From the NCBI GenBank assembly GCA_000182565.2, contig KQ257460.1: a stretch of DNA of 64,000 nucleotides. One strand, given 5' to 3'. Origin of the DNA: Spizellomyces punctatus DAOM BR117. Lineage: Eukaryota. The notes under the pieces are model-generated. The model made no database searches, was not told the origin of the DNA, and saw only the letters and a list, made by a program, of their open reading frames with translations. Shown here one piece after another: positions 24,058-61,020 of the stretch. Numbering within the stretch: position 1 is the stretch's first letter; each line of letters opens with the position of its first letter. The position numbers were made by a program, and so were the translations under genes.

Positions 24058-24456
24058 CGTTTGCACAAGGAGCGATCCTGCAATAGAAGGGATCCAACTG
24101 CCATTCCTTTTATGTAAGGTTTTGATTAAGGATATATTCCACCGATACCTTGGAAAATCCCAGAATTGGATAATCACATCCTGATTATGAATAGGAAAAC
24201 CGATGTCAATTACTAAAAAAAGGTGCAGGGATACACAATTTTCCCGGATATAAAGCTCATCTACGTCTAGTTTGGACCCGTTAGACTGCTGAACACTATC
24301 TTTAATATCTTTTACGATATAGGCTTTTGTGATCTTCAAAAGCGTCGGGCCTAAAATTCTGGCCCTATCGCAATCCGGGCATATCCTGTATGCAAAAGGG
24401 ATCAGTTTGTGCTCATCCACCTTGGGATCGCTTGTAAACAAACGCTACCGATAGCA

Positions 24457-27400
24457 ATGTCCGGATATACCCTGCTCCTGGTTCTCATCCATATGCTGAC
24501 AGCAGTCGCATCAGCATCTTCCTTCACACTTCACGTCAATAATTCCGCCGAGCTGGTATCTGGGGATGGATCAGATTCCTCTCCTTTTCAAAATCTGGAC
24601 GATGCGTTTGCCTTTGTTACTGGCCACCTTTCCAATTACACCAAATTTGAAATTATTTTAGAACAACCCGGCGATTATCCTCTCAATGGTGATCCTTTCG
24701 CGGACGACGGAGGTTACACGTTTGCCTCTATATCGGTTGATCAACCACTGTGGTTGGAAATTGTCGGGGTGTCCTCTGCGGTTATTACAGCGACGCCAAC
24801 GCTGGCGAGCAGTGACGCCGCGGGCCCTATGTTCAGCATTAGCAACGGTGCAACCTTGGCCTTCAAGAATATGATGCTTGGAGTTCCCGGGGATGCTCCT
24901 TATCTGGACATTACTTGGAATTTTAATGCCGTCGACAATTCATCGATCATTTTTGATCGGGTCACATTTGGTAGGTGATCTCGCACGCTATGTAGAATGT
25001 CCTAGTAATCTAAGTACTGAAATGTTGCTATCGGATCGCAGGCACTTCAGTTACAACCTTGACAGGAGCGTCTACATTCATGGTGAACAACAATGACCAA
25101 TCCTCCACTAGCATGATGGATTGTTCAATGTCCTCGGGTAAGAATATATCTAGGCGAAACGTATTCGTCATTCCATTTACCATAAGCCCGATACAGCTGT
25201 GTACCTATACCCCATTGTGACTGGCACCTCCACTTTGGATATTTCATCCATGCGAGCGACCGATGCACAGAAATCTGCCTTGACAATTTATGCAACAGAT
25301 TTTGCTATCGTTCGGGTTAGTGATAGCATCTTCGTCAATCAGGTCTGCTGGCAAGAGCTACAGGGATTAGTCTATGTAAGTTCTTTTCTTTTATATAGAG
25401 TCTTCGATCTTTTCACTGAACCGATGATGTATCATCAGACAGATGGACACGCTGAAGTGCATTGGAGTAACTCGATCGTACGCAAGCGCGATATGAATGG
25501 GATGGACACTAGCTTCGACGTTTTTCAGGTGCGCATACAGCTCCAACACACTGAACTGAGAATACTGTCCACCTTCGGCTGGCATACCTTGACGCTCTTT
25601 TATCCTTAGCCGATGGGAGATTCTGTCATGTACATTTCAAACTCTAGTTTTGAAGGTAAAAAGTCCTCTCCCTGTTTGATGTTGAGAGGCAGGAATAATG
25701 TTTTGCTATAGATTTTGGACGGATAGTTTGGGCTTGGACACAATCAAGCACAACAATTTGGAATTCTACATTCCTCAACAACTCTGCGGCGTCCGATAGC
25801 AGGATTGCGCTGGTGGGCCCGGTATCCCATCTCACGATTGACAACTGTACCTTCATTGGTGAGGCATTTTGAACATTTACGTTTCATCTTTGCAGAAGCT
25901 CATAGCGCTCTAGCTAATGGAGGGGGCTTCCAGTCGTATCAGTATGCTCCGATTACGATTCGTAATTCAATTTTCATAGGTAATTCAGTTTTCTGAACCT
26001 CTAAGCTCACCGAAATTAACTACGAGTGGCCTTGCCTACAGATCATGAGGTGATAAAATGAAATACCCAATATACATGGATCTGAAACTAATGGGCATTT
26101 CAAAGATTGGAGACTTTGTTGGAACCATGTTCGACCTTGCGAGAGGGGCATGGGTGCAGCTTCAAAACGTGAGCATGACCAGCAGCAGCGAGTTTCCCGT
26201 CAATGTCCCTTCCATCGTTGTTATGTACGATGACTCGTATTTTGCAGCGGATGGACTGACGCTTACTGGTAAGCCCTTCGAAACCCGAAATATATGCAAC
26301 GGAAAAAAAGTTCATGAAACACCTACGAAGGTTACAAGTGCCTCCAGTGTTTCGATATAGAGGATGCCGGCAAGTTCTACTTAACGAATTCTACCATATC
26401 AGGTGAAGTGCCATGTCAAACTGTAACTGAACTGACTGATACTCATTCGTATAATTGCAGCTGTTGAAGCGGAAACATTGGTATTCTTCGGCCGCAAACC
26501 TATTGATCTCATCACGGGTGTGGAACCCGCCGTGATAACTACGACTTCATTTTTCAGTGAGTATACCTTTTTTACTCGTTTTTCTGAGTTTACTAGGCTA
26601 ATTTGTTGGATTTATAGATATACAAGGACAGGTTATCTCCGCCGCTCTTACCGTCCTTCATGTTCAGAATTCAACTTTTGTTAATAACAACGGAGGCTCT
26701 CTCTTGCAACTGAGGGATACTCAAACAAACTTCTACTTCTCCAATTGTTCATTTACTGGTAGGTTTCTTCGGGAGATGTGTTAGTCTGGCTTATATAACA
26801 GACAACATCTTTAGGCAACACGAGTCCTGAGAATGGCGCCGTCGCTAGTACCTGCGGGGGGACTCTGTCTTTCATTGACACCGTTATTGCCAACAACAGC
26901 GCAAACGCTCTTGGTGGGGTACGTACCCACAGAACGCATGTCTGTAGGACGAAACTAGTTATAAAACTAATTATTTGGTAGGCAATATTCTGCGACTTCG
27001 GGAGCGGCCAGCGTCTCGTCATCAAACGTAGCAAGATTTCAAGCAACACTGCCAGAGTTGGAGGTGCCATATATAGCGATAACTTGGCAAGCGCGGATCA
27101 GTTGGTTCTCCAAGATCTGGTGTTTGATGCAAATATCGCCGTCGCCCGAGGTGGTGCATGGTACAGCTCCGCCAAAAGTCCACTTGTGGAAGAAGGGGGA
27201 AGTATTGTCTACAACGGCAATATGGCGCCTGGTGCTCCTACTCGAGGAACAGGGCCATTGACGTTAGGTCTGATAGCTCCTGTGGAGCCGTCGCTAGCGG
27301 TTTACTCTGGTGATATTTTACCGAAGCTGACTCTGGCTGCGTATGATGCTTACAATCAAACCTATTACACCGTCGAGGATGACCCAATCTTGGTTCTCGA

Positions 27401-53863: not shown

Positions 53864-56800
53864 CTACTTCCGTTTTTTTGCGCTTCCCTTGCTATCGTCT
53901 CTCCCTTTTCTCTTCTTTTCGTCTTTCTCCTCCTCCACCTCCGCGGTCTCTTTCGATATGAGACTAACTAGAGTATTGCATCGCCGTTGAATTTCTTGCG
54001 CTGTGCGGGACTTGATGAACCAATCAAATCGGAATAGGGGTGACCGTTTCACCTCGTCCAAGATTTTATCGTAGACATCATCTGAACCATAGCCGAAGCG
54101 TTCCAACATGACGAGCTAGGAAAGATTTTAATCATGATTTGCGGGGTCCACTCAAGGCAGATAACGTCTTCCACCATGAACCTTACCAAAAAGCGGTCTT
54201 CCTCCTCTGTGAAGTTTTTGCCCTTGCTTTGCAAATACTGTATCTTCAGTTGCTGCAAGGGGGCACGGTGCTGCCTAACCTTTGCCGTCAAGGCATCCTG
54301 AATTTCCTGAGTCCTTTTCAATTTGGCTTCACCTTTTTCTATGTTCGCAATGATCTTCTCATAATCTGGATCATGGAATGAGTATTGTACGTCCATCCCG
54401 CCAAGAAGTACACTTGCTTCTGATGTGCACGTACCGGCAATTTCTCTGAAGCGCTTCCAGAACACAGCCGCGTACTGTTTCACCTCGGATGCGGTTTTCC
54501 CCTCCACTTCTTGCGCAATTGCCTCAAGATCATGTCTGAAAGATATTGACCTAGTTAGCGTAATTCATAGCCGGGTATACCTGAAGACCATGTCACCTTC
54601 CGTTCTTCTCGTTAGCCTTGCAAAATGCGATGAAGTCTCGCTTCGACCAATCGCCAAATCCCTGACCGCGACAGAAGCCATGTCAACGTCCGCAGAAGAA
54701 ATTCTACGACAAATAGAAATTGCGTACTTTGGTCAACAGTTTCTCCTTTTCAGCAATTTCAGCTTCGGAGAGCGGCTCAGCTAGAGGGATAAGAGGGAAT
54801 GTCAAATTCATAAAACCGCGCGGCTGACAGATTATTGCACCAAGTATTACCTTGATCAACCTTGGCTTGCTCTTCCTTCATTTTCTCCGCTGTATCTTCT
54901 TCATTTTCACCTTCTACATCCTCGGGCCTCACTTTATACCCAATCTCTTTCTGTTGGGGGGATAAGCACGGTAGGACAACGGTATAAGACAGCCTATGCC
55001 TGAACCTACGCGGAAAGCGAGGATTTCTCTTTCTTGCAAATCCTTCAGACGCGCCGGATAGAACTGGAAATCTTGGCTGCGGCATTTGGTTATTCTCCTT
55101 ATTCTATCAAATAGCTCTGCACACTGCGCTTCCTTACATGTTTGCAATTCTTGGTGGCTTGGGAGCCTTCTCCTTTGCAGTTCGGCCTCCTGTTTGTAGC
55201 ATAACCTTGTAATACTCCTGCTCGGAATACGATGCCAAAACTAGGAAAGAGTTTCCAGCTCACAACATGGCTAGAGCCGTTGATAAGGATAATCATGCTT
55301 ACGGTTCTTTCGCTCGCGCTTAGCGGGTCCAATCCATCCAAAGCTACCGCCTTCCTTTTTCTGATAGACGGTCACAATTAACCTTTCCGACACGAGCCAG
55401 TTGTATTCTTCTGCTACTCACTCGGAAGTCTGCACCTTCCCATTCGTAGACACTCCCGCCACCCGCTAAGCTGAATTTTTGCAGATCATCAAGACCCATG
55501 TTGGCATATTTTGAGTCCAGCTCTGCAGTCTTCTGTTCGGATCGCTTGAGAACCTCTTCAATATTATCTCCTGTAATCGTACTTGAATCCGCCCGAGTTA
55601 GTGACTCAGTCTCCCAAGTTCCTCAGATCGTTGACAAATACCTGTCCGTCGACTTGAAAATATCCTGTGCTCCATGTTGAATCATCGAGACAAGGTCATC
55701 CTTGGATGCCGCTACAGTACAAATGTCAATGAGCTGATGCCTCTACAGCAATTGCTGGCTTCCGTTATACCTTTACTATTTTGCACGGATCTGCCTTGTT
55801 GAATGACGAGCTGGTCAAGACGAAGCTTTTGTGTTGCACGATCGATGACTTTTTCTTCAACTGCATTCTGGAGAGTCACCAGGATGAGTCTGCCACATGT
55901 GTGTCGGACTTTCATAGCACAACTCCCAAGCCTGTCCTACCTCGGTGATAAATCGGAAAACAACGACTTGCTTTTTCTGCCCGATACGATGTGCGCGATC
56001 CTCAGCTTGAAGGTCAACTTGCGGATTCCAGTCGCTATCGTACATGATGACAGTGTCCGCGGTAGCCAAGTTGATGCCGAGACCGCCCGCCCGTGTAGTC
56101 AATAAGAATATAAATTTGGAACTGTCGGGTTTGTTGTATTCATCGATACTGGCAACCCGATCCTCATGCGGAGTCTGTCCATCTATTCGGCAGTATTGAT
56201 ATCCACGAAAGATGCAATAATCCTCCAGAATATCTAGCATTCTGCTCATCTGACTAAACAAGAGCACGCGCGACCCTTGAGCTTTTGAGCGCTCCAACAG
56301 CTTGTCTAAAACTACCATCTTTCCTGCATTTTCAATGATATGCTCGTCAGTTGTATAAGGTGGTCCTGGCTCTGCACCATCGAAGAGGTACGGATGGTTA
56401 CAACATTTACGCAGTTGCATCACAATGTTTTGCAACCTTGTAAGCCGAGTTTTACTCTGCTTGTCGCCGAGAGCATCATTTACTGCGTCAATGTCCTTTT
56501 CAAGCAGGTTCCGATACCATCTTCGCTGCATCGCGCTCATCCCAACATAGATATTGACCCTCTTTTTTGGTAAGAGCGATTTCTCAACATCTGCTTTGAT
56601 ACGCCTGAGTAAAAACGGTCGGAGGACCTTGTGGAGCTGGGAGACGACCTTATCCTGGTCTCCTCCTTGAGACTCAAACCATCGGTCAAAATCTTCTGAC
56701 GAACTGAAAATGTCTGGAAGAAGGAAATTCAAGAGTGCCCATAGCTCGTGCAAGTTGTTCTGGAGAGGGGTTCCCGTTAACAACAGGCGATTACGACACT

Positions 56801-57737
56801 GAAACTCTCGCACGATTTGAGACAGGGCCGAGTTTTCATTCTTGATTCTATGTGCCTCGTCAATGACAATGTACTGCCAAGACAATTTCCGGAAATGTGC
56901 CTTCTCCAAGAGGCACATCTCGTAAGATGTCACGCAAACTTCAAAGTCTTGGGCTAGCAACTTGTCTTGCACTACTGCTTGTCGTTCCGGCTTACTCCCA
57001 TGGAACATAAAAACATCTAATGAGGGCACCCATCGCTTGAATTCGTTCACCCAGTTGTGTAAAGTAGACTTTGGAACTATAACCAGATGAGGTCCATCGA
57101 TCGACTGGAAATGCTTAAGGTAACCCAAAAATGATATGGATTGAAGCGTTTTCCCAAGACCCATCTCATCTGCAAGAATTCCGTTGATTCCATTTTCAAA
57201 GAGTGAGATCAACCAGTTCAAGCCTTGAACCTGGTAGTCTCTCATTGGAGCGTGCTTGACATACGGTGGAGATTCATCGAAGACAAACGGAGCTGGCTCC
57301 TCCTCCTGCTCGTCCTTTAAAAGTTCTTCATCTTCTTCCTTCTCAGTTTTGCGATGACGTCGTGATCCGATCTTGGAGCTTTTCTTTGCCTTCTCAGCGT
57401 CCGCTGCTTCCTCCAACGCCGTGACATCCATACCTTTCATCTTATTTATGTTGATGAAATGTGCGAAAAGCTCTGTCTGACCCATAAGATAGGCATATCG
57501 CTTTTGCTGGTCCTTTGCTTTCTTTCGCTGCAGTTCCTCAGAATCTCTGGCAAACCCTGCCTTTCGTTTGGCATTCAAGGCGCGGTCGACCGGGCGTTTT
57601 ACATGTCTAGCCTCTTGTGTGCTCTTCTCACTTTCCGTCTGCAGGTCATCGTCGACATCCATACCGTCGCTAACGGTCCCATTATTCTCCTCTGCGCTTA
57701 CAGCCTCCGCTTGTTCAGGATTGTCTATCGATGACAT
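53864..57737 (-). CDS. ISWI: ISWI-family chromatin-remodelling ATPase (SNF2 helicase + HAND-SANT-SLIDE)
   Basis: [71 protein letters not shown]-terminal EEEDRFL and [11 protein letters not shown] of the SLIDE domain. Confidence 0.97.
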
Positions 57738-58027
57738 GGCTGCAGTTTCGACATTGGAGATCAGCGAGGTTCTGCTTCTAAGAAGTCACGTGAGGTCCAC
57801 TCTATCCCGAGTGATATGTCCGACTTCGAATCAAGCTCAAAATCCGCGCAGGAAAAAGAACTCTAAAAAAGTTACAGCGGCTGCAAATACATAGTAGAAA
57901 GAAGGATGTATTCTAATGACAAAGTGTCAATGTAAACAGTTTAATTGGCGAATTCATCATATAAAAAGTACGAAGGATGATCGCCAGTAAAGTCCTCCCT
58001 CAGCAGCATATATTCTATCACAAAAAT

Positions 58028-59481
58028 CTAGTGTCCAGGTTCAACGAGTTCCGTGTTGGTATAGACGACGGGACTCTTCTTGAATCCATTGAACTGGGAC
58101 GCAGCGCACATGGTGTATGCGCCCATATTGTCGAAATGCAGCCAGTCGCCGACCTGCATCTCAGGAAGGGAAAAGCCCTTGCCAATACAATCGATGGAGT
58201 CACAAGTGGGGCCCCACACGCTACAAGGGAATTCGGCCTCTTGAATCGCGTGCTTGTACATAAAAGCACCCGAACGCGCGAGTACATTCGGAGTAACCAC
58301 AGCATGATCAAAAGTGATGCAGTTGAAGCTTCCGTACATTCCATCATTGATGTAGTACATGTAAGAAGGATGATCATCGCGGGTGGCAACGGCGCTCGCC
58401 TCACTCTCGTCGATAGCACTGCTTTTCCGATCCCGGGGAACCACGCGGCGCGCAATGACATTGACCGCCAAGGTGAAAGCCGAAGAAACATAGTAGCGAC
58501 CCGGCTCCGCGATAACGCGTACCTCGGGACCAAAATGTTGGTCAATGGCCGGTCCGAGCACAGCCGCAATCTGCTGAAAGCTGACACCGGGAGCGTTGTT
58601 GCCAGGGAAGCCACCTCCAACATCGAGAAGGTGGAAGTCGTAACCCCACGCTTTTCCCTCATCGAAAGCCTTGCGAGCGAGCATAACAGCTTCGCCAAAA
58701 GCACTAGCATCAAAGCATCCACTTCCAACGTGGAAACTGATGCCGATGACATCCATGTCGAGCTCACGAGCTGCTTTGAGAAGATGGGGCACAGCTGCCA
58801 TGGGCGCTCCAAACTTAACGCCAAGTTTGCAGATCGATCTCGAGTCATCCGTCAGGATACGAAGAATCATCTGGGCGTTTGGGTGAATAGCCTTCACCTT
58901 CCGTAGTTCGTCAGCATTATCGAAAGTCATCATCCTGACTCCAGTAGCAGCGGCAAAGCGAATGTGGGACGCTTGCTTGCAAGGGTTGGCGTATATAATC
59001 TTGGAGGGGTGCACGCCCTGGTCCAACGCCATCTGGATCTCACCCTTGCTCGCACAATCAAAGCCGGTTCCGAGTGAAGTAAGGGTCTTCAATACCATGG
59101 TATCGGGGTTACACTTCACGGCTGTCAATGTAGAGAGAACTAGTGAGCGAGGTACAATACGGCACATCGCAATGATGCAGAATGCCTACCATAAAAGGGC
59201 TCGACACGAGGAAGGAGCTGCTTCCACTGTGCATGCTGGCGGGCTACTTCTCCAAGATCACCAACGAAAAAAGAGTCTTGCGCTTCGGGATTCGTCACAT
59301 CGTAGTCAACTGTGCGGCTACGCAAAATTGATCCAACGGACCGCGAACTCACGTTCGCGGGCTCCGCCGTGGCCATCCCAGAGGACAAGCCATGGTGGAG
59401 CTTTGTAAGAGACTGCTTACGCGAGAGAGCACCGAAAAATTCAGTATCGGGGTTGATGAAAGGTACGATAACCTCCTTCAT
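58028..59481 (-). CDS. SPE1: Ornithine decarboxylase, 2 exons (intron 59122-59189)
   Basis: PFY/AVKCN (PLP lysine), FDCASKGE, YANPCK, FHVGSG, LDVGGGF, AEPGRY, YYINDGMYGSF, WGPTCDSID (catalytic Cys), GAYT. Catalytic residues are intact, so this is ODC rather than an antizyme inhibitor. Confidence 0.96.
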
Positions 59482-59596
59482 CGGACCGGACGTAATAAAA
59501 GCGCGACGCGTTGGAAGAGAGGAGGAAAGGACGGTGAGAGGGCACGGGCCCGGATTAGCGAGTGACTAGTGAAGTAAAGTTTGGAAAAATGGAGTT

Positions 59597-59788
59597 TCAG
59601 GCGCCTTCTGCACCTGCCCAAGGGGGTTCTAAAGAAAACGCCGAGAGTTGGTTGGTCTGCACGAAATACTCAAGAAACATATTGAACAAAAACAAACCTG
59701 GAAGAATCCCCGGAAGGAGACGAATGTTAAGTCGACTTGGGAAGTACGTGGTTGCAGGTGCACTTCTGGGGTAACCCGAAGTGCAAAG
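59597..59788 (-). promoter_or_regulatory. Upstream ORF in ODC leader ending in EPPW motif (uCC-like)
   Basis: Minus-strand frame open from after the TAA at 59789-59791 to the TGA at 59597-59599, ending ...TNQLSAFSLEPPWAGAEGA*. It stops 115 nt before the ODC AUG. Confidence 0.75.
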
Positions 59789-59976
59789 TTACAAGATGAG
59801 GGCGAATACCCTGATGATTTGAGACCGAAGAGCACAAAGCCTTCGGCTTAACCGTTAAAAGATTGCGCGAAACAAGAAGCGAGTGGAAGAATCCGTTTTG
59901 TTTGAACGGAATCCTAAAAAGTAGGCAAAAGATGTTGGGTAGAAAATGTTGGGGGGACTACAGTTGGGGGGGCCCC

Positions 59977-59983
59977 TTTTATA
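59977..59983 (-). promoter_or_regulatory. TATA box for ODC
   Basis: CTATAAAAGGGG on the minus strand about 500 nt upstream of the ODC AUG, followed by pyrimidine-rich sequence. Confidence 0.55.
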
Positions 59984-61020
59984 GTCGAGGTTAAGCACGA
60001 ACGAAGTGTGAAAAAAAGACGCGCCGATTGATTCCATAATGCATTTTGGCCAGTTTGCGAATCCCGTTTGTTTTCTTGGGGACAATACGAAAACAAAGAC
60101 GCTTTTCGCCAAGATCCCCCCCAAAAATAAAAAACCTCGCCTTGGCCTCTCCCCAAAAATAAACCTCCGCCTTGGCGAATGGTTACTTTTTTTTATGGTT
60201 GGGGGGGGGGCTCTTGTTGTGGTATATCGGGGCTGATGATGGATGAAAGACATCCCAACCAGCCAATGACGACGCTAGTCCAGAACAATCGCTGGAAGCA
60301 TTTATGGCTGTTCTTTGTGATGATTTGGTTATTCCCCCCCCCCCCCCCAAAAAAAAAAAAAAGAATCAGAACAAAACGATCCAACGTTCCAAACTGCGGG
60401 AATCGACCAAGGGTAGTTCAACTGCCTTTCAGTCTCAAGACTCGTTGAATTTGGTAACATTTGCAGATCTGACGTCGACTTTTCTTCCCGTCATGGTTCA
60501 GTATCTCGCACAATATTTTGAATGAAGTATATAAAAGCTAATTGTGGCATATGTCATCTTCGTGTGCCGCTGCACCGCTCTTCAATGGCGACTTTTTCTG
60601 GTCCGTTTTGTAAACATGACATCCAGAATCCAGTGGATACTGGACATAATGCTCAACAACTCTACAACCGTAGCGGTTGTAGGGAAGGTTGCTCCCAAAA
60701 ACTTCCTCTGATGATTCGCTTAGGCACACATTGCGAGATATCTACGAAAATCACTGGCACACTCTGGCAAAAAGAGGCTCGCAATGTTGCCCCTTTAAGG
60801 CCAGCAGAGGCAGCGATAACAAAAGGCGTCCATGTTTTGACAGCCACACTAATGCAAACCTGTCTCCGCACACCCGGCACCGACTATGACGTCAACAGCT
60901 ACAGGCTCATCAGTGGTTTGAGTTCTGAGCAAGTCGATCAATGACCGACAAGTATTAATTAGTGTACTATTTAACAACGATCATTGATGAACTACGGCCA
61001 ATATATCAATTCCCAGTAAA

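Follow-up and report, generated by a model that had tools for sequence, protein, structure and literature searches.

A putative polyamine-sensing upstream coding region in the spliced, AUG-free ornithine decarboxylase leader of the chytrid Spizellomyces punctatus

The ornithine decarboxylase (ODC) mRNA of Spizellomyces punctatus contained, upstream of its main AUG, a short reading frame that ended with Glu-Pro-Pro-Trp and six further codons. By analogy with known elements of the AZIN1/ODC kind, it is reasonably likely that this frame is an upstream conserved coding region (uCC), initiated at a non-AUG codon and sensing polyamines through eIF5A, in a member of the Chytridiomycota. Transcription and splicing of the leader, its freedom from AUG, the frame, and the motif were established directly. 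An element of this type had been proposed in an earlier note on the same DNA; that interpretation was probably right in kind, and the function assigned to the element rests on the analogy with AZIN1. The whole stretch of DNA analyzed (64,000 nucleotides) is called the window, and all positions are counted from its first letter.

The ODC gene, its transcript, and the upstream frame

Four public RNA runs (X1, X2, X5, and X15) were compared with positions 57700–60500 of the window. The features of the gene are given below in the order of transcription.

59977–59983, minus strand: possible TATA box (TATAAAA), ~60 nt upstream of the RNA contig end, its function being presumed
59792–59917, minus strand: remainder of leader exon 1 up to the end of the RNA contig, which sets a minimum 5' extent
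59789–59791, minus strand: in-frame TAA that bounds the upstream frame, leaving at most 40 sense codons after splicing
59698–59788, minus strand: upstream-exon part of the upstream frame, carrying the candidate non-AUG starts
59749–59747, minus strand: candidate start ACG, A at -3 and T at +4; 27 sense codons, 60 nt to TGG
59725–59723, minus strand: candidate start ATT, A at -3; 19 codons
59707–59705, minus strand: candidate start ATT, G at -3; 13 codons
59629–59697, minus strand: leader intron, 69 nt, GT..AG; joint 59628 to 59698 in X1 (contig depth 8.81) and X5, equivalent joint in X2
59597–59628, minus strand: remainder of the upstream frame, on the downstream exon (bases 2 and 3 of the Glu codon, PPW, six codons AGAEGA, TGA)
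59482–59596, minus strand: spacer of 115 nt from the upstream-frame stop to the ODC AUG, which lies in another frame
59190–59481, minus strand: ODC coding exon 1; ATG 59481–59479, N-terminus MKEVIVPFINP... matching protein P0001
59122–59189, minus strand: intron in the ODC coding region, 68 nt, GT..AG; joint 59121 to 59190 in an X1 RNA contig (record 1)
58028–59121, minus strand: ODC coding exon 2; stop 58030–58028, Pfam PF02784 and PF00278
57893–58027, minus strand: 3' UTR of the ODC mRNA to the poly(A) site, from raw RNA reads of X15

The Pfam domains PF02784 (E 7e-73) and PF00278 (E 4e-26) both matched exon 2. The Lys of VKCN and the motifs HVGSG, GGGF, EPGRY, and PTCD, which were invariant columns among 22 aligned ODCs, were all present, and we take these residues to have catalytic roles. 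The two domains and the conserved motifs place the protein among the eukaryotic ornithine decarboxylases (group IV PLP decarboxylases). Exon 2 shared 96% identity with the ODC of Spizellomyces sp. 'palustris' and 80–82% identity with those of Gaertneriomyces, Geranomyces, Powellomyces, and Thoreauomyces. The earlier note had supposed an intact ODC in an early-diverging fungus; the host is a chytrid, and the conserved residues indicate that the enzyme is intact.

A 1857-nt RNA contig of X1 (record 1), from a root metatranscriptome, spanned 57924–59917 with both introns removed. The leader joint was also contained in a 230-nt contig of X5. The raw reads of X15 were 3'-biased, piling up at 57888–58263 with almost no depth over the leader. 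Loose T-runs before 57892/57894 on the plus strand represented the poly(A) of the minus-strand RNA and placed the poly(A) site near 57892. Since the spliced contig reached 59917, the leader was transcribed to at least that position, and a transcription start downstream of 59620, named in the earlier note as an observation that would speak against the element, is excluded as the sole start.

The downstream neighbor of ODC (55857–57737, minus strand) encoded a protein with the motifs ...DEMGLGKT... and ...DEAHRIKN..., which we take, judging by eye, to be SNF2/ISWI-like. Upstream of the ODC promoter, long T, G, and C homopolymer runs were located at 60323–60376 and 60110–60200, and reads seemed to be cut at 60323–60376. 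These are possibly assembly-prone or promoter-spacer tracts.

In the genomic translation of 59860–59597, the upstream frame read ...AFSLEPPWAGAEGA followed by the stop, with PPW at 59626–59618 and TGA at 59599–59597. Strand reading and translation agreed with the letters and coordinates that the earlier note had given for an EPPW frame upstream of ODC, and the frame was indeed missing from the list of open reading frames (at least 40 aa; ATG, GTG, or TTG starts). The in-frame ACG (59747–59749) and ATT (59723–59725) proposed there, each with A at -3, both stayed in frame after splicing. The +4 position of the candidate starts was T or C and never G. What that description of the leader overlooked, and the spliced RNA contigs revealed, was the intron and the in-frame ATG inside it.

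The leader intron was inserted in phase 1, one base into the Glu codon preceding PPW. This codon was rebuilt by splicing from G (59698, the last base of the upstream exon) and AA (59628–59627), and the reading frame was kept across the intron because 69 equals 23 × 3. The mature frame ended ...ILP-EPPW-AGAEGA and the stop. The earlier note had described FxxEPPW as common to this frame and the animal element, but the residues AFSL that precede EPPW in the genomic reading are intronic, and the likeness is absent from the mRNA because F, S, and L are encoded by the intron. Its remark that the terminal PS of the animal element is lacking was accurate.

The frame had the location expected of a uCC in the mRNAs of ODC homologues (the Ivanov/Atkins class), on the sense strand inside the ODC leader and lying entirely ahead of the main AUG. 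It also had the start expected of a uCC, with in-frame near-cognate codons in good context in a spliced leader of at least 367 nt that contained no ATG, and adjacent prolines, in a PPW six codons before TGA. The ending of the animal subgroup, PPW-x-PS and stop, was not found, the frame closing with AGAEGA.

The single ATG within 59917–59482, at 59680–59678, was intronic, had A at -3, and was in frame with EPPW and its stop. This arrangement, together with an intron that contained no in-frame stop, could favor a functional intron-retained mRNA, in which the AUG at 59680 would open a 27-codon uORF ending in EPPW and the following codons and regulated splicing would set the output of ODC. However, a stretch of 23 open codons is expected by chance in about one case in three by our estimate, the contigs listed across the region were all spliced (X1, X5, and X2), and the AUG-free mature leader argues for a non-AUG mode. 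We consider this explanation very improbable.

PPW frames expected by chance and found in other ODC leaders

PPW occurred 11 times over the six frames of the 64-kb window, in two cases with a stop within 10 codons. When the 367-nt spliced leader was subjected to 20,000 mononucleotide shuffles, any PPW was found in 3.7% of the shuffled leaders, PPW with a stop within 10 codons in 1.2%, and a complete lack of ATG, as in the real leader, in 1.6%. The upstream PPW frame exceeded the chance expectation. A PPW near a stop and the lack of ATG are both what would be expected if ribosomes scan through the leader and begin to read it only at a weak start.

The only other PPW near a stop in the window belonged to an AUG-initiated uORF of 15 codons at 24390–24437 (plus strand), ending ...HPPWDRL and stop. 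Its stop lay 19 nt ahead of an open reading frame (ATG at 24457) with a signal-peptide-like N-terminus. This may be another uORF that responds to eIF5A or polyamines, or a product of chance.

Metagenome contigs were scanned with a chytrid ODC alignment, which gave at least 80 ODC-family loci, the best identity among those listed being 62%. The main ATG was assigned automatically in 76 of the 80 listed loci (the assignment failed for L028, L032, L036, and L047); this assignment was rough, and was wrong for the genomic locus L001 at least. Among the loci listed, a PPW with a stop within 10 codons was found on the sense strand of 22 of the 76 leaders and on the antisense strand of none. When every PPW within up to 1500 nt upstream was counted, the numbers for the listed loci were 25 sense and 8 antisense. 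No in-frame ATG preceded the PPW in 20 of the 22 listed leaders that carried one, and in 21 of these 22 the spacer from the uCC stop to the main AUG was 16–194 nt, compared with 115 nt here.

Most of the 22 listed PPW leaders were animal-like, ending ...EPPWDPS and stop or in a close variant; the animal-like loci listed mostly ended with PPW, then D, E, or N, then P, then S, C, or E, and the stop. Three of the 22 (L001, L003, and L005 among the loci listed) were Mortierella-like, with 83–92% identity to named Mortierellomycotina. They had in common an ACG with A at -3 and G at +4, located 54 nt before TGG and opening 27 sense codons. The leaders of L003 (508 nt), L004 (326 nt), and L005 (548 nt) contained no ATG. 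In the gene model P0102 of Podila epigama, the uCC (...RRSPPWLPESQ...) was found inside an N-terminal extension. The 391-nt leader of L002, a Neocallimastigomycota-like locus with 99% identity to P0094, had two ATGs and no PPW frame, which means that not all early-diverging fungi have the uCC. The JGI protein P0013 was 72% identical to the ODC studied here, and its contig was not among the loci listed. In addition, a search for stray fungal contigs among prokaryote genome contigs gave 29 pattern matches and no ODC relative.

These counts bear on the possibility of coincidence, that is, an untranslated leader in which PPW and a stop have met by chance in one frame. The shuffled leaders yielded such frames at the low rates given above, and the leader frames were generally open, a second one running for ~70 codons without a stop. 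A coincidence would nevertheless have to fall in a gene family where PPW is expected, as judged from the sense and antisense counts, and in a leader free of AUG, a state that few shuffles reached. We regard coincidence as unlikely, and the recurrence of the block in relatives, described below, also speaks against it.

The exon-junction block in chytrid relatives

One of the listed loci, L004, was a 1738-nt metatranscriptome contig that encoded an ODC with the chytrid-type N-terminus MKEITTFINP. Its leader frame had an ACG (A at -3) 63 nt before TGG and read ...LLRAPDPPW and then six codons to the stop, 28 sense codons in total. A FastTree tree of 112 rows was built from 76 of 120 proteins, the ODC studied here, and 35 of the 80 listed loci (top-ranked mRNA-like loci and uCC bearers; 45 loci left out). 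In this tree, L004 and P0059 were placed in a 32-row clade with a support of 95, whose named members were all chytrids. A quick IQ-TREE run of 37 rows placed L004 in a 17-row clade with 15 chytrids (SH-aLRT 91), apart from Mucoromycota (99). With moderate confidence, the trees suggest that L004 comes from a chytrid.

Run X2 held two ODC forms over 58021–59814, one nearly identical to the window (one difference in 640 nt) and one ~81% identical, which could reflect a mixed sample, two species, or two alleles. The diverged form (organism A) showed 69 differences in 366 nt and 73 in 388 nt of the ODC coding sequence. Its 472-nt contig aligned to 59814–59700, 59629–59593, and 59498–59474, the spacer between the latter two being unaligned. 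The leader intron was removed at the equivalent place, and the alignable block ended 4 nt past the uCC stop. Over 59814–59700, 10 substitutions and one insertion of 3 nt, the sole indel, were found, and the frame was kept. The visible changes, a minority of all differences of organism A, were A>C at two sites that are synonymous in the uCC frame, 59699 (Pro>Pro) and 59734 (Arg>Arg), and at two that are non-synonymous, 59731 (Leu>Phe) and 59745 (Tyr>Ser). They are compatible with the uCC frame and do not single it out; the synonymous pair would leave the peptide of another frame unchanged as well.

The ODC of Geranomyces variabilis was represented by two models. P0004 started with MKE..., and P0003 started with 29 other residues that included FQNPLG. 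All three leader frames were compared, as 4-mer words, with the first 170 residues of 120 proteins, and three consecutive matching words were found only for FQNPLG of P0003, among many chance 4-mers otherwise. FQNPLG corresponded exactly to the +1-frame reading of the spliced leader here, across the exon junction and the PPW codons, which requires 12 of the 18 bases to be identical, among them all wobble bases of the uCC frame. This is compatible with L-P-E-P-P-W-A in Geranomyces; the residues of P0003 upstream of LPEPPW were not compatible with those here. A restriction of conservation to the C-terminal core is also described for uCCs in PMC2811004. The P0003 model itself takes a leader exon in the wrong frame and passes over the true start. 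Among 30 ODC models, an in-frame PPW in an N-terminal extension was absent from all chytrid models. The read-through model P0024 of Entophlyctis was considered as a source of PPW evidence and was dropped, since degenerate back-reading was too ambiguous.

The organism A contig and P0003 both point to a conserved block of junction and EPPW. Together with L004, these sequence comparisons form three lines that are favorable, though indirect, to its conservation in chytrids. A recurrence of the junction-PPW block in two diverged relatives, and of the same layout in a locus of the chytrid clade, would not be expected if PPW had arisen here by coincidence.

Conservation of the block may also reflect a constraint on the RNA, through splicing of the leader intron or an RNA-binding factor, with PPW as a by-product. 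The conserved stretch straddles the exon–exon junction, the wobble positions of the uCC frame are kept in Geranomyces too, which points to a nucleotide-level constraint, and leader exon 1 of organism A was ~91% identical whereas its coding sequence was ~81% identical. However, the exonic consensus of splice sites extends only 2–3 nt, while the FQNPLG stretch, with 12 of its 18 bases fixed, takes in the first 12 nt of the downstream exon, and the alignment of the organism A contig continues past the uCC stop. The Mortierella-like PPW of the genomic locus L001 has no intron in its frame, unlike the frame studied here. Furthermore, no Rfam family reached its threshold over 59400–60100, the best match being on the other strand with 16.1 bits against a gathering score of 35.6. 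An RNA-level constraint with PPW as a by-product is, in our judgment, rather improbable, and a translated uCC remains the preferred reading of the block.

Known elements, proposed mechanism, and meaning

According to a 2009 review (PMC2811004), uCCs occur in ODC homologues of animals, Pezizomycotina, Basidiomycota, and Zygomycota. They mostly start at non-AUG codons (AUU, UUG, ACG), have 22–100 codons, carry a pair of neighboring prolines toward the C-terminus, and are conserved only in a C-terminal core (PMC2811004). The review treats them as having arisen independently in the four groups, and chytrids are not named in it. The statement of the earlier note that uCCs are known from some fungal ODC mRNAs is borne out by this review and by the Mortierella-like loci. 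For AZIN1, three papers (PMC8705083, PMC11550727, PMC9082881) report that PPW needs eIF5A, with which polyamines interfere, and that the paused ribosome leads to queuing, more initiation at the weak upstream start, and a block of the main ORF.

The frame studied here resembles the vertebrate AZIN1 uCC in lying in the leader of an ODC-family mRNA, in having no AUG, in its in-frame near-cognate start with A at -3, and in a PPW near the stop that is preceded by an acidic residue. By analogy, the logic of an eIF5A/polyamine pause with ribosome queuing may also be the same. The two differ in the main ORF, which is an intact ODC here and an inhibitor of antizyme in AZIN1, and in length, with at most 27 codons from ACG here and an AUU ~30 codons before PPW in AZIN1 (PMC9082881). 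They also differ in their ends, since six unrelated codons without PS follow PPW here whereas AZIN1, initiated at AUU, ends ...EPPWEPS and stop, and in the phase-1 intron that directly precedes PPW here.

The Mortierella-like uCCs (L001, L003, L005, and P0102), examples of the 'Zygomycota' uCCs of PMC2811004, are similar in belonging to fungal ODCs, in their long AUG-free leaders, in a PPW followed by several codons without PS, and in an ACG with A at -3 that opens 27 sense codons. In contrast, their flanks are R-S/P-PPW-L/H-P and not L-P-E-PPW-A-G as here, eight codons and not six follow PPW, and the +4 base is G and not T. When the frame was compared with L004, both had an AUG-free leader, an ACG with A at -3 at a similar distance from TGG (60 nt here and 63 nt in L004), LL..P-(D/E)-PPW, and six codons to the stop, whereas the spacer from stop to AUG was only 43 nt in L004 (115 nt here) and the residues after PPW were unrelated.

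The HOL1 uORF of S. cerevisiae is AUG-initiated. It and the AdoMetDC uORFs are alike the present frame, as far as the analogy holds, in encoding a short leader peptide on which ribosomes stall at high polyamines (PMC2811004, PMC11550727). Both belong to other genes and lack PPW. The AdoMetDC uORFs start at AUG and have proline next to the last residue (PMC2811004), and the HOL1 uORF stalls at termination on PS (PMC11550727).

The frame may also be translated and repress ODC in another way, by damping it constitutively or by sensing eIF5A/hypusine or proline supply and not polyamines as such. Stalling at PPW depends on eIF5A in general (PMC8705083), and the frame studied here lacks the polyamine-linked terminal PS with which the animal uCC, the plant AdoMetDC uORF, and the yeast HOL1 uORF end. 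Nevertheless, the main ORF encodes the rate-limiting enzyme of polyamine synthesis, and the PPW motif of AZIN1 is itself reported as the polyamine-responsive element (PMC8705083, PMC11550727). Such a role is not likely, although it is slightly less unlikely than coincidence.

The proposed mechanism follows the polyamine-sensing reading. Most scanning ribosomes would ignore the in-frame ACG (or AUU), a weak start, and initiate at the ODC AUG, 115 nt past the uCC stop. A few would initiate at ACG, the most likely start, and translate 27 codons. At low polyamines, the short frame would be terminated, and the ODC AUG would be reached by leaky scanning or reinitiation. The Pro-Pro-Trp peptide bond would need eIF5A, and high polyamines would interfere with it and make the ribosome pause. 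Ribosomes would then queue behind the pause over the 60 nt back to ACG, with more initiation there and a block of the ODC AUG. We estimate the 60 nt from ACG to TGG at about two ribosome lengths, a distance at which a scanning complex waiting in the queue would stand close to the start. The predicted outcome is that high polyamines lead to less ODC synthesis.

A bolder extension would make the (D/E)PPW uCC ancestral in fungal or opisthokont ODC mRNAs, not the product of four inventions. In addition, the Spizellomycetales element would be gated by splicing, a retained 69-nt intron swapping the weak ACG for a strong AUG before the same stall motif. This combined proposal is unlikely, on a par with coincidence. 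If it were true, chytrids would keep an animal-like acidic-PPW core in a Mortierella-like ACG format of ~27 codons, and intron retention would be a second, all-or-none layer of ODC shut-off.

The uCC kind is already known, and the chytrid member is apparently new. A full-text literature search, whose reach ended short of the primary uCC papers and their supplements, gave no paper joining uCCs with Chytridiomycota. Papers joining Spizellomyces with ornithine decarboxylase or uORF were absent among the matches listed. Particular to this case are the in-frame phase-1 intron just before PPW, the in-frame AUG inside that intron, and the combination of acidic-PPW with a 27-codon ACG format. For annotation, stretches of leader or uCC are included in the protein of at least two deposited fungal ODC models (P0003 and P0102). 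As the mechanism itself has already been established in animals, the practical importance is modest.

The chytrid can be transformed. If confirmed, the frame would provide a compact case, with at most 27 codons and 60 nt from start to pause, for the ribosome-queuing model and for the question of single or multiple origin. The PPW/eIF5A type of polyamine-sensing uCC would then extend to the Chytridiomycota, outside the four groups given in the 2009 review (PMC2811004).
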